The notes under the pieces were generated by a model. It had not been told where the DNA came from. It searched no databases and worked only from the letters and a program-made list of their open reading frames with translations. 64,000 nt of DNA from Amoebophrya sp. A120 (lineage: Eukaryota; Protista; Dinoflagellata), in assembly GCA_905178155.1 (NCBI GenBank), contig CAJINV010000003.1, positions 618,720 to 682,719 on the forward strand, in the 5' to 3' direction. Shown here in pieces: positions 3,001-49,800 of this stretch; the stretch's first letter is position 1; every line of letters starts with the position of its first letter. The translations under genes and the position numbers were made by a program.

Positions 3001-6000
3001 TTTTGATATGGGGTGGGGGGATTTTTCATTTTGATAAAACTTGGAGTTCCAGGTGGTCCAGAAGCACAATCGGGCTCTGGACCAAATGCAAAGCGGCAGT
3101 TCTTTGGAGGAGCAGACGAAATTACAGCTTGGACGGTCGTTAGAAATCATTGTGACGAATTTCGTGCGAATTTGTAGGGCGAAGACCCGCGACCGCGACG
3201 CGGCCTTGGCATTGGGGTCGGACTTGGGATTCTGCGTTGCAAACGCATCTACGACGCCCCGCTCGTATTCCGCGGCTTTTTATTGGTGTCCCGACGAGGA
3301 GGGGCAAAGCCAGCAAAATCTTCCCACGCCGGGCGCCTTCATCTATGCCCGAGTTTTGGGCCCAGTGGCTGCACTAATGCGCCCTACCTGCACTAATACG
3401 CTGCACTAATGCTGCCCGAGTTTTGGGACGCCGTGGCAGTTTCCAAAACGGCGCCTGTCGCGTCGAAGTCAAAGACTTCCCTCGATGGTGAGGCACGGGA
3501 AACGCAGCAAATTTCCTTGCGTCCCTCGGAAGGGCATGGGACCGGGAAAAGGGTGGCCAGGTGATTGGCCGCCAGACGTTGGCTTTTGGGTTTTTGCTGA
3601 AATTCGCTCGAAATTCGCACCTGCTCTTTCTAATGGGGGCCCAAGCTCTAAAGACGAAAGTGAATTCCTACAAAAACTTGGAGTTCTATGGATGTGTCAG
3701 AGTTGAAATCGACAAAGTTGAAATAGTTTGTGATGCATAAAATGTAGCCCACAAAGTGCCTGTCTTGCAGAGTAGGCAAGTGAGGCAGATTGTAAGCCTG
3801 TTGAGGGGTAGAAACTGAGCTGCTGAAGTAGCATGACAAAAGCAGTCTTCTGTGCCCAAACAGCATGACAAATTGGATTCCGGTGCTCGGACAATTTGTC
3901 ATGCGCCACTTGAAAACTAGGCGCCAACTGGTACCCGTTTTATATATGCATCACAAATTATTTCAACTCTGACGATTTCGATCCTGACAGTTCCATAAGT
4001 TCCAAGTGGTCCAGAAGCACAATCGGGCCCTGGACCCGAACGCGCCGCCCCCCGTGTCCACTACGTTGTACGCGTACGGGGGAAGTTTAGGCTTAACGCG
4101 GGTCCTATGCATTGCAAAACTATCGTACTAGTAGAAATAGCATTTACAAATTTTTCCAGAAGGAAAAGTGAAATTTGTGATGCTGAATTAGCTAAGACGC
4201 CAAATCTGCCATGCTGTACTGCAATTACTACGAGTACGATACTTTTGCACAGGATATGTCCCGCTGGAATCCACACTCGCCCACCTGCAGAACTCCGGCG
4301 ACCGCATTGTCCGTGTGGAGGGAATATGCATTGCAAATATTTCTGGGTCTGGAAGGTTGAAACTCGTGATGCCAACTGTGGACTCTAAAAAAATCTGTAT
4401 TGCATGACTAGCACGAGGCGCCCAGTTTGTGCTACGGGGGAGGGCATTTGTCATGCGGGATAGGCATCAGGAAATATGTAATGCGGGCTAGAAATATGAG
4501 ATGCTAGATCATGCATTACAGACATCCTGAGTCATGCAAAATATGCATGACAAACCTGGCAACCTTCCAGCCCCAGACATTTTTGCATTTGATAGGGCAC
4601 GTGTCTGACCCCCGCGTGCTCCTTCATTTTGAAGGAGATGACGCGGACGAGCGGCCGGTTGGAGGACGCCTTGCTGAAGGCGGTCGCCGCGGGTCTGCTT
4701 ACTCCGCCCTCCTCCGGCGGGGGCGCGACTAAGACGCTGACGACGAATAATAGCTCCTGCAATTCCTCGCCGGTCTCCTCCCCGTATGGAAGCTGCACAA
4801 CTACTTCCGGCGACAAGATTGTCGTTGAGCATCTTCCCTCCAGGGCGTCCCGCTCCCGACTTTTCGTCGAGGAGTTCATGAAGAACTGCAGCAAAGGCGA
4901 CGACGAGAATGTCATGTCTTCGACGACTTGCTCACCAGGGGGTGGAATCAACAAGGCCCTACAACTCGGTGGAGGCGCGCAGCATGCGCATCAAAATCTA
5001 GTGACGCAGCGATCCGTCACGTCGGATGTCGCGGGCTACGGCTCGCCGAACACCTACGCAGAGTGGCGCCAGTACAACCATGATCAGTTTTTGAAAACAA
5101 AAGACAATAGTTGCGCGGGCGGGGCATCGCAACAGGAACATGAGGACCTTGTGCAACACGCACTTGGAAATGAAGCAAAAGCAGGTAAAGGCAACGAAAC
5201 TGCTAAAAACGGAGTAGAAAAAACACCCGTGGATCAGGTGCAGAGTGGGCAAGATGGAGGAAATACTGCAGATCACAACAAGGATGTTGACGCCAGCACA
5301 GCGAGCACCTTGGTGCAGCAGACACCTTTGCAAGTCGCACATCCCACACCATCGACTGCCGACGTGTCCCCGGTGAATCTTCCAGAAGGTAAAAATCCGG
5401 GTCGGAGTATGAAGGGAGGTCAAGAAATCAACACCTCTCCGCACCAGCAGCAGGTCAACGCATTGGAAAAGGTTTCGGCTTCGACCATTCAACTCGTCCG
5501 CACCTTCGCCGCGGAATTGAGTGGCGAGGTCGCGGTTTCTCGATTAGTCACGCTCGCGCGCCGCATCGGGGCCACGTCCCAAGAGGACGTGATCTGCGAG
5601 CCGTTCCTGCCCGCCCACGGCACGGATGAACAGATCGCTGCCGCGGTGTTAATTCTGGAAGAAAAGATTCAAAAAGCGAGCGCTTCCAATTGCTCCTATC
5701 GCTACCTGGCCTCGTTGAAGCGGTCAGGACGGGCGGCCAAGTGCGCGATTCGCCTAGTTGCGTTCACGAACAACGACGTGATCAATGTGGAGCACCTCCA
5801 GAGTCCGGTTTCATCTTTTAGCACCACAGCAGCTGCAAATAACACGGCGGCGCACGGTGCGACGGTGCATCAAACTCGGCACCAGCCTGGAGATCAACAT
5901 CTACCTCCATCTTCCGCGACCAAGATGGAGCAACGCAGCATTTCCGAGAGCAAAGTCGGAAGCGCGAACGTACAGGAGCGGGGAATGCTGGACCACCACG

Positions 6001-46800: not shown

Positions 46801-49800
46801 TCTGCGGGATTATTTCCCCCTGGAGGATTTGCGTTTGAAAGCCCTAGCCACCGTGCCTATGGAGGAATATCTCCTCCGCGGCGACGATATCACGCTGAAA
46901 CGCGGGATGTTTCCCGTGGGTTCGAGGTACTTTGTTACGAAACCGGACGAGGAGTATTTGCGCGCCAGACACGCGGTTTTGAAGTACCGGGACGAGGAAA
47001 AGCAGAAGCGCACGTCCGCCAGGAAGACGCTCCGGAAGTTCTGCTGCTTTTGTTGCCCGACACTGCGTATGACTTGCAAAACAAGTATCGTAGTACTCGT
47101 ACGAGATTCTTGCAGTCTGGCATGAGAGATCCGGTTTTTTTTATCTGAATCTGCATAACAAGTTTTCTGAGAAGTCATGCGATTTGTACTAGTGCGATTA
47201 GGATACTTTGCAATGCATAGTGCGAAAAGCCATGCACATGACGGACGACAATCCGTACCGTGTGCTTAACAGCGACGGCTGCATCTGCGACGTGGCGGGC
47301 AAACTGGAGATTTTCGGCGACATTGACGATCAAAAGGAGCACATCCTGGCGGAAGCGGAGGAGCTGCGAAAGATCCAGGAAGAAATGGACAGGGAGAACA
47401 GTGATCCCTTTGGGATTTCTGATGACTCGTTGTCCCCGAACAAGAGAAATTCATCCAACAAGCGCATCACCACCAGTTTCCAGAAGAAGCGGGGGAGTAA
47501 AAGTGACCGGATCGCGAAAAGGTACGACTACGAGAAGATGTTTCAGAAGTTGTCCGTCGAGGGCATGCCTAGGCCCAAGCTGCCGAACACGCTGGAGAAG
47601 TACCTGGCGCTGCGGTCGGAGCACGCGTACTTTGGGCAAAAGCTCGGCATCTACTGCGTGTTTGTGCGGCACTTCGCGAGCGCGCTGCGGACGCCCGCGG
47701 AGTTCGGGCTACTCGTCACGCTGTTTCAGGCGATCATTTCCTACCTGGACCTGGACACGACGGACCCGACACAGAGCGGTCTGAAGTGGACCGCCAGCCA
47801 CGGCGTCCCGCTTTTGAACGCTGCGTTTTTGGCGTGGTGGGGCCCGTCCTACATTGCCAGCTGGGAGCGCGTGCAGAAAAGGAAAATGCTGCAGCTTTTT
47901 GGGGTGGTTCCGGGGAAGAACTACAAGCACGCCAGCAAACACCAACCACGGAAACGCTTCCACGGGCTGAAGCAGAAATCCGCAATCACCGGCGAGTACG
48001 AGGTGGTCTTTCCGGTTCGCGAGGCGCGCGCGCGCGCGATGTATTCGAACCTGTGCTCCATGCTGTTCTGCACGCTGGTGTTGTGCATCGTGGTCGGCGT
48101 TTCTGGTATTCAGTTTGTCATCTACGAGCACACCATGATCTCGTTCAGTGACAGTCTCTCGTACAACTACTCGCTGGAGCTGATCGGCGTGATGAATGCG
48201 GTCGTGGTCTTGATCTTCAACGCCATCTATTCTTACGTCGGGCTGTGGCTCACGCACTACGAGAACCACGCGACCTACGAAGGTTTTTTGGAGTCCTTTG
48301 CCATCAAAAGCTGTGTGTTTCAGTTTTTAAACAGTTACTCCGCGCTGTTTTACCAGGCGTTCGCGCAGAAATTTTTGCTGCGGCGGATTGCGAAGGGCCT
48401 CGGGAACGACAAGAGCGATGAATGGTACGACATGCAGTACGACGCCATCTGCCCGAAGGAGTCGATTCTCTTCGGGAGCACCTGCGAGATGGGGACGACA
48501 AACCGCACCCTGGTATCATTAGTTCTGGTTTTCATGGCGCGCAACGTCACGGAGCTGGGGCTGCCGATTTTGGCGCATTGGTGGGCGGAGTGGAAGCGGA
48601 AGACCAACCTGCGCGCGATGGACGCGCAGCGCTGGGCGTTTACAAAACAGGGCGAAAAAAGCATGCTCGGCCGGGCCTTGCTCCGAATATCCACCACCGT
48701 AGCTTTGCCAGGCCAAGGCGGAGGCATCACCACCGCGGGAGCAGGCGATACAGCTGCCACCTCAAGCGTAAAGATGGAGCGCCCCGCGGCCGATGGTAAA
48801 AGAAATGTCGACGACGCTACAACTGGAGTGGTCCAGGCGAGCAAAACCCCGGTAGCTGGACCTCCTGCGGCTACAGTTCAGATAGACGCTTCTGGTAAAA
48901 TTGCGCAACAAGAGCACCGCCAATCTAGTACCCTGGAGAGGAGCAGCACGATGACGTCGAAGCCGCCCTCCTCCTCCGCAGGGCCTGTCTTCGCTAATGC
49001 GGTTTTCAAGGCGGGACTCGAACAAGATCGATCCTCGAGCACGTTGAACACCGTAGTACAGGCGGAAAATGAAATCCAGTTAGACGACATTACGTTCAAC
49101 ACTGCACCTACGAGCAGGGAAGATGCATACGCAGCCAATGCGAATGCCCGCACTACACTCCAGCTCGCTTCCTCGCACAAGCTCCCGAAGCCCAACGAGC
49201 GCGGAGGGGGAGGCAGCCACCCGTCGAAGCCGCGGGCTAGAGGTGCACCTGTTCTTGCCGTGTTCGATGCTCCTGGTGACATTACTTCCCAGCAGATCGA
49301 GGGGTCGCATAATGCTGCGGACGAGCAGGATAACGACCGTAGCGGTCCAGTTGGAGGCGGGACAACAGCGAAGAAGATGTCCCTTGAGGAGGCATTTGGA
49401 AACGCAACGTCAACAGTACTAGCTGCCGATCCGAATAAACGCGACGACGCCCCCCGGCTGACTCCGCTGGAAGAGCTTGTGCAAAAGTACGACCGCGAGA
49501 ATGCCGCCCTACAGGCTATCTACGTGGGGGAGGAACCGGAATTGCCGGACTACTTTTACGACGACACTGCGGAGTACGACGCGAAAGCCGTCCGGGCAGC
49601 GCGCCACGCGGGCTCGTTCACCGAGAAGAGCGGCGGCGCCGACTTGCCCATCGACCGCAGCTCCTCGAATGCCTCGTCGAAAGAGTCCGTGCGGCCACCG
49701 AAGAAGCGCGACTTCGAGGAAGACGAAGACGGCCCCAGCGGTTTACGCCGAGAAACGTCCGGCATCGTCGTGCCTGCTCCACCGACGAATATGGTTGGTC

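Follow-up and report, generated by a model that had tools for sequence, protein, structure and literature searches.

Silent bias among target site duplication mismatches of Amoebophrya introners, mostly expected from one copy being exon

Introners and imperfect repeats in the window

The stretch of 64,000 nucleotides (nt) analysed here, called the window throughout, belongs to contig CAJINV010000003.1 of the dinoflagellate Amoebophrya sp. A120 (GenBank assembly GCA_905178155.1, positions 618,720 to 682,719 of the forward strand). It contains 23 hairpin-forming introners of the form TAT...ATA, 150-322 nt in length, each between direct repeats of 5 base pairs (bp), which are perfect in 14 cases and imperfect in nine (Table 1). 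Where the two copies of such a target site duplication (TSD) differ, the difference tends to be silent at the codon level. This bias is real and follows for the most part from the fact that one copy is exon; beyond this expectation a modest excess is left.

The same 23 elements were recovered by a detector blind to the TSD. Four have a decayed 3' end from which ATA has been lost, and the hairpin at 4315-4604, which encloses the introner at 4325, has a z value of -4.2. Removal of introner 447-672 together with one TSD joins positions 175 and 176 of the AA_kinase profile. The flanking repeats are true 5-bp target duplications, because empty sites hold one copy of each repeat. Such sites occur in the window at 2640-4050, where an exon segment is tandemly duplicated and each copy carries different insertions, and in a pair of loci from one other public assembly. 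The members of this pair (L002:1239-4020 and L017:1-2254) are paralogous or allelic, share 91% identity, differ in three element insertions and have one near-identical element in common; the pair is too small for a comparison of exon with element divergence.

In the preliminary description of this DNA, eight coding introners with imperfect TSDs were listed, six with a silent difference and two with a replacement. The element positions, TSD pairs and codon pairs given for these eight proved correct, and a ninth imperfect pair, ACCGG/ACAGG at 29211, had been overlooked, which makes the tally 6/8 or 6/9; the best frame of this element failed the frame threshold and its P/Q difference is therefore insecure. 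Frames come from a codon model in which the TSD was masked; they are consistent with long spliced open reading frames (ORFs) and with the available Pfam matches. The silent majority had been thought surprising on the premise that a freely drifting intronic copy gives mostly non-synonymous differences. That premise omits the silent drift of the exonic copy. If only the intron copy drifts, 0.26-0.31 of the differences are expected to be silent, and six of eight has a p of 0.006-0.013; once the exon copy is allowed to drift silently too, the expectation is 0.42-0.47 and p is 0.06-0.11, and when the null is conditioned on mismatch position and phase as well, p is 0.21-0.33. Under drift of two copies, 6/8 is thus not significant (p 0.06-0.33). 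The window alone shows little, and it is in the larger sample described below that the silent bias is real.

TSD position 1 holds six of the eight mismatches and is the third codon position in 12 of the 21 framed window elements. It is mismatched in 6/21 of these, versus 20/410 in the other assembly (p 0.0008). A special role of position 1 was rejected, as it was not replicated in the loci of that assembly, where the positions show no heterogeneity (p 0.30); the excess in the window may be due to chance or to an effect specific to A120.

Table 1. Introners and host genes of the window (positions counted from its first nucleotide; TSD pairs are given as upstream/downstream copy)
Feature	Position	With TSD	Strand	Remarks
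Introner	4106-4256	4101..4261	+	GGTCC (4101-4105)/TGTCC (4257-4261); position 1, silent CGG/CGT; RNA joint 4101->4258
Introner	4325-4594	4320..4599	+	GGGAA/GGGCA; position 4, silent GGA/GGC; RNA joint 4323->4599, 1 ambiguous letter
Introner	9430-9741	9425..9746	+	TGCCG/CGCCG; position 1, silent AAT/AAC; RNA joint 9425->9743
Introner	13771-14032	13766..14037	+	CGTGT/AGTGT; position 1, silent TCC/TCA
Introner	17980-18135	17975..18140	+	CGGTT/CAGTT; position 2, silent TCG/TCA; frame backed by Methyltransf_24 exon
Introner	27353-27565	27348..27570	+	CGACT/AGACT; position 1, silent GGC/GGA
Introner	29211-29419	29206..29424	+	ACCGG/ACAGG; position 3, P/Q in best frame, frame insecure
Introner	41424-41576	41419..41581	+	GACAC/AACAC; position 1, replacement R/Q (CGA/CAA); 3' end decayed to ACC
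Introner	47068-47219	47063..47224	+	CTGCG/GTGCG; position 1, replacement L/V (CTG/GTG)
Introner	447-672	442..677	+	Perfect TSD ATGTT
Introner	2273-2423	2268..2428	+	Perfect TSD
Introner	2715-3036	2710..3041	+	Perfect TSD; empty site in duplicated exon segment near 3660-3686
Introner	3687-3997	3682..4002	+	Perfect TSD; empty site near 3042-3060
Introner	9160-9382	9155..9387	+	Perfect TSD
Introner	13457-13723	13452..13728	+	Perfect TSD
Introner	14822-15128	14817..15133	+	Perfect TSD
Introner	15218-15368	15213..15373	+	Perfect TSD; 3' end AAA
Introner	17132-17393	17127..17398	+	Perfect TSD
Introner	17459-17612	17454..17617	+	Perfect TSD
Introner	21885-22135	21880..22140	.	Perfect TSD; non-coding location
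Introner	31722-31871	31717..31876	+	Perfect TSD; 3' end AGA
Introner	35694-35844	35689..35849	+	Perfect TSD
Introner	37691-37971	37686..37976	+	Perfect TSD
Host gene	3..6164		+	Aspartokinase-like; AA_kinase and ACT domains; Homoserine_dh match weak, below cut-off; GT-AG introns too
Host gene	16039..18173		+	Methyltransf_24 domain
Host gene	30431..38083		+	RCC1 repeats; BTB match weak
Host gene	45080..50765		+	Anoctamin family

Silent and replacement mismatches in a larger sample

With a 21-base pattern of the element, at least 149 stretches were collected and stored as 141 loci, all of them from the one other assembly; the viral collection gave 0 matches. In the merged sequence of 623,092 bases, a detector using the element ends alone called 572 elements, including the 23 of the window, to which those of the other assembly are up to 90% identical. 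Among these repeat-blind calls the TSD match was 5/5 in 416 and 4/5 in 113, and a mismatched TSD (3/5 or 4/5) was found in 137, about a quarter. Internal palindromes (2/572), elements with no secure frame (127/570) and elements with a TSD match of 2/5 or less (12/443) were set aside. The final set of 431 framed elements, 21 from the window and 410 from the other assembly, has TSD matches of at least 3/5.

The tally by codon position that had been proposed for the whole genome was made on this set, in which 66 of 119 mismatches are silent (55%, interval 46-65%) and 53 are replacements. The silent share expected when the exon copy drifts silently is 0.38-0.46. Fourfold degenerate (4-fold) sites are mismatched in 41/344 cases (11.9%) and non-degenerate (0-fold) sites in 44/1350 (3.3%), so that the 4-fold/0-fold ratio is 3.66 (2.43-5.50). 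If both copies drifted equally, a ratio of 2 would be expected; the observed value rejects 1 (p 8e-9) and lies above 2 (p 0.004), also when the window elements are left out (3.33, p 0.017). In controls with shifted frames the ratio is reversed (0.49-0.55). CpG context was considered as the cause of the residual and rejected, as stratification by CpG-prone context leaves a ratio of 3.56 (p 0.008).

Mismatch increases from 4.0% to 6.6% with the distance to the nearest related element, which indicates that the mismatches mostly arose after insertion. With this nearest-neighbour divergence as a proxy of element age, mismatch at 0-fold sites is 1.8, 2.6 and 4.3% in successive terciles, and at 4-fold sites 10, 13 and 12%. 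Terminal branch lengths of the elements are upper bounds, given the sparse sample, and the 3' terminal TA, tried as a neutral clock, was discarded as it shows no rise with the age proxy. Polarization of the mismatches by GC/AT or CpG direction was symmetric between upstream and downstream copies and hence uninformative. In elements of the four largest families, sense-strand C>T changes (104/4706) exceed G>A changes (68/4813; p 0.004), as transcription-linked deamination would predict.

Retained copy and splice junction

The mismatched base reveals which copy of the TSD is kept in the messenger RNA (mRNA). Contigs of runs X1 and X4, which are presumed to be RNA and also skip GT-AG introns, were placed on positions 1-20000 of the window; 15 of 50 joints were listed, with one contig per run and joint, and among these eight window elements are skipped. 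The upstream base is present at all three informative junctions, in both X1 and X4, in contigs that would hide minor isoforms. The upstream letter is G in joint 4101->4258 and T in joint 9425->9743. Joint 4323->4599 locates the cut either 1 nt before TAT (after TSD position 4) or 0 nt before it (after TSD position 5). Copies of both kinds in spliced RNA were looked for among the joints listed, and only joints with the upstream base were seen; contigs drop rare forms. In the raw-read runs X10 and X11 only element-like pieces were matched and the exons were not covered. At the protein level, the public A120 protein has L at the introner at 47068, which corresponds to the upstream copy; the anoctamin exon from 47226 on is 100% identical over 400 amino acids (aa) to an A120 protein. 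Protein searches for the translated copy gave no match for the L063 gene, two relatives whose matches did not span a mismatch, and no homolog of the gene that hosts the introner at 41424. The downstream copy would create a stop codon in two framed elements, the upstream copy in none.

The preliminary description had offered two readings of the silent bias: either both copies can end up in mRNA through a sliding junction, or the intronic copy is itself constrained. Sliding finds no support in the upstream bases in RNA and protein, the two stop-making downstream copies and the flat distribution of 0-fold mismatches along the TSD. Constraint on the intronic copy fared better in that the ratio exceeds 2, but the intron copy still carries replacements (53/119).

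The first two bases TA of the element are changed at the transcript 5' end in 1/862 cases and at the 3' end in 20/862 (p 2e-5). Since TA is invariant only at the transcript 5' end, despite insertions of the four largest families in either orientation, the 5' TA probably serves as the donor signal. The TSD itself lacks a motif: among the 431 framed elements no base or splice dinucleotide is enriched beyond two weak hits, and GT/GC/GA or AG is not enriched at any TSD position. The 3' cut would therefore be set by its distance (4-5 nt) past the hairpin rather than by sequence, which fits the data best. Several framed elements no longer have the repeat, yet removal of the element plus five bases still restores their frame, as judged by length modulo 3 only, with some miscalled ends among them.

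Insertion phases are unequal (113:124:194, p 1.5e-6). A target preference was seen 11 nt outside the TSD, with C at +11 in 186/398, where 110 would be expected, and G at -11 in 157, where 121 would be expected; the two occur together less often than expected (65 versus about 80 of 431). This preference explains part of the phase bias, as it predicts 0.36 of the observed 0.45, and an argument from phase 0 for a cut after position 4 is for that reason not relied on.

Explanations and comparison with known introners

The reading we prefer, with a probability of about 0.6, is that the junction is fixed, that the exon copy drifts at silent sites and that the intron end changes more slowly. Insertion duplicates 5 bp, and the message is restored once the element has been taken out together with one copy. 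The upstream copy, kept in the RNA contigs, would survive silent changes only; excision at a fixed junction probably takes the downstream copy away with the element, and this copy may differ at any codon position. The residual above 2 is most likely caused by an intron end that changes about 2.7x more slowly than silent exon sites, through a weak non-coding constraint. If replacements in the exon copy are rare, the implied rates are 3.3% for the intron copy and 8.6% for silent exon-copy sites, and the former is close to the deviation at conserved element columns (4.0%); the pace of the intron end would match that of conserved hairpin columns (3-4%). In a post hoc comparison the downstream copy at 0-fold sites gains T rarely (3 versus about 10) and A often (17 versus 8), a pattern that differs from the element interior and hints at a weak non-coding constraint.

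Several observations weigh against this interpretation. RNA junctions are available at only three of the eight cited sites, and none of them has a mismatch at position 5, so that they agree with a cut after position 4 as well as after position 5. Of the 431 elements, 410 come from the other assembly with frames that are predicted rather than checked against RNA. The slower intron end was deduced from rates, the GC-AT and CpG directions being symmetric. Poorly coding elements, a mixed set, are mismatched in 12/165 cases (7.3%), below the 11.9% of the slowed-intron model (p 0.04), and silent mismatches show no increase with the age proxy, a behaviour not expected from constraint alone. With the eight TSDs of 2/5 match added, the ratio falls to 2.7 (p 0.09).

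That last value, together with 2.3 (p 0.25) when all low-match TSDs are included, 2.8 (p 0.19) in minus-strand genes alone and the lack of significance in the window alone, would fit plain drift at equal rates in both copies, with a true ratio of 2 and an excess arising from sampling, site context or the omission of low-match TSDs. Yet point changes should yield 0.7 low-match TSDs and 12 are present, among them miscalled ends and rearrangements; the ratio is 4.9 (p 0.0005) in elements with a single mismatch and 4.25 in the best-framed ones, and it withstands the stratification by CpG context. Moreover, any replacement change in the exon copy would push the expected ratio below 2. We consider plain drift very improbable. 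Hardly less improbable is a junction that slides, in which the 5' TA and the hairpin set the cut loosely, a minority of transcripts carry the downstream copy and both copies are under coding selection. It would explain a ratio above 2 directly and agrees with the symmetry of the two copies at silent sites; it implies a neutral divergence of about 6% per copy, and unpaired element columns allow up to 6-10% (half of the 13-20% divergence between neighbours). Splice sites that vary relative to the hairpin were also reported in the available parts of Farhat et al. (2021, PMC7789003). Against sliding stand the upstream base at 3/3 RNA junctions, including one at position 4, where uniform sliding favours the downstream base, the two stop-making copies, the invariant 5' TA and the framed elements that keep frame after loss of the repeat. 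Under sliding, 0-fold mismatch should also increase with distance from the junction, whereas the counts at TSD positions 1-5 (7/231, 9/280, 9/311, 7/233 and 12/295) are flat (trend z 0.6) and position 1 lies below 6% (p 0.03). The conservative replacements it predicts are not evident: the BLOSUM mean is -0.27 versus -0.53 for random replacements (p 0.22).

A junction that is fixed could also be combined with gene conversion, in which one TSD copy is replaced by the five bases of an allele free of the element. Differences between alleles in coding DNA are mostly silent, and the surplus of silent mismatches would be brought in by this route. The age contrast speaks for it, as replacement mismatches rise with the age proxy (p 0.005) and silent ones do not (p 0.36), and so does the existence of diverged copies with and without elements, such as L002 and L017; in P0003, with 92% identity, a 53-aa read-through probably represents an extra element. 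The contrast between silent and replacement mismatches has a p of 0.03, which weakens to 0.15 when the 22 neighbourless elements are removed, poorly coding elements do not have the high mismatch rate, and no conversion tract or matching allele was seen. Import by conversion is therefore regarded as unlikely, and a fixed junction with a slowly changing intron end is retained as the best explanation.

The window elements are members of the introner family described in Amoebophrya A120 by Farhat et al. (2021, PMC7789003), which, in the parts of that paper available, is characterized by a TAT start, seven variable bases, an A run, inverted repeats, non-canonical splicing supported by RNA, and direct repeats of 3-5 nt at the borders (5 bp in the legend of Fig. 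S19). In the present elements, A occupies end positions 11-13 in 84-94% of the ends of 322 strict elements, which were preselected for TAT; 553 elements fall into families of 189, 117, 33, 25 and more, and those of the window are too short to encode a transposase. The same parts of that paper leave the border unknown or variable and contain no tally of repeat mismatches by codon position, whereas here the mismatches place the cut at TAT or 1 nt before it and the TA constraint is confined to the 5' end.

Introners of Symbiodinium, Polarella and Aureococcus are, as far as the accessible text of Roy et al. (10.1101/2020.10.14.339549) and Gozashti et al. (2022, PMC9860276) goes, likewise elements with terminal inverted repeats, the removal of which with one TSD restores the message, and their phase bias is tied to the insertion site. 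They recruit GY/GA/AG from the TSD, in contrast to the motif-free TSD found here. The nonconventional introns of Euglena, in the portion of Nomura et al. (2025, PMC12501133) at hand, resemble the present elements in their paired ends and in a junction that lies a fixed number of free bases from the paired motif. Their motif is N3CDG ... CH'GN5-6|R; the elements studied here have TAT...ATA ends, 0-1 free bases at the 5' side and 4-5 at the 3' side, and show no preference for a purine at exon +1. A codon-level tally of TSD mismatches in introners was not found in the literature searched, which excluded most subscription papers. A paper that combines introner, target site duplication and synonymous uses the last term for dS, the synonymous substitution rate, and the word is absent from the available main text of Gozashti et al. 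(2022).

Other repeats were noted beside the introners. At L004:2204-2726, TAT...ATA ends are offset from an 8-bp direct repeat and perhaps represent another family. Within the aspartokinase-like ORF of the window lies a 533-nt element of another terminal type (3120-3652) with a perfect 5-bp duplication; a 527-nt X1 contig covers 3036-3548, so that this element may be retained or transcribed, and similar ends occur near 22462, 55146 and 56230-56260. The window further contains an array of palindromic repeats spaced about 240-435 nt apart (7021-8591), a long AT-rich palindrome (56535-56772), a 736-nt repeat 88% identical to L041/L042 (58613-59348) and short tandem repeats at its end (63588-64000). 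No TAT-type elements were found in its last 16.8 kilobases (47225-64000), despite long coding exons there.

Tens of thousands of non-GT-AG introns are spliced in Amoebophrya, in which, to our knowledge, U1 small nuclear RNA has not been detected. The exact borders of the A120 introners, blurred by the direct repeats, were left undefined in the available parts of Farhat et al. (PMC7789003). Mismatches between TSD copies are natural markers of the junction that remove this blur. With the mismatched quarter of the elements, the position of the junction and the extent of sliding could be read at thousands of introns from A120 RNA reads that already exist. If sliding were true, coding selection on both copies would explain a ratio of 3.7 between 4-fold and 0-fold sites instead of 2. 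The evidence so far favours the 5' TA of the element as donor and an acceptor whose place depends on distance. What is gained is that the mismatches mark the junction; the silent bias itself is mostly ordinary.

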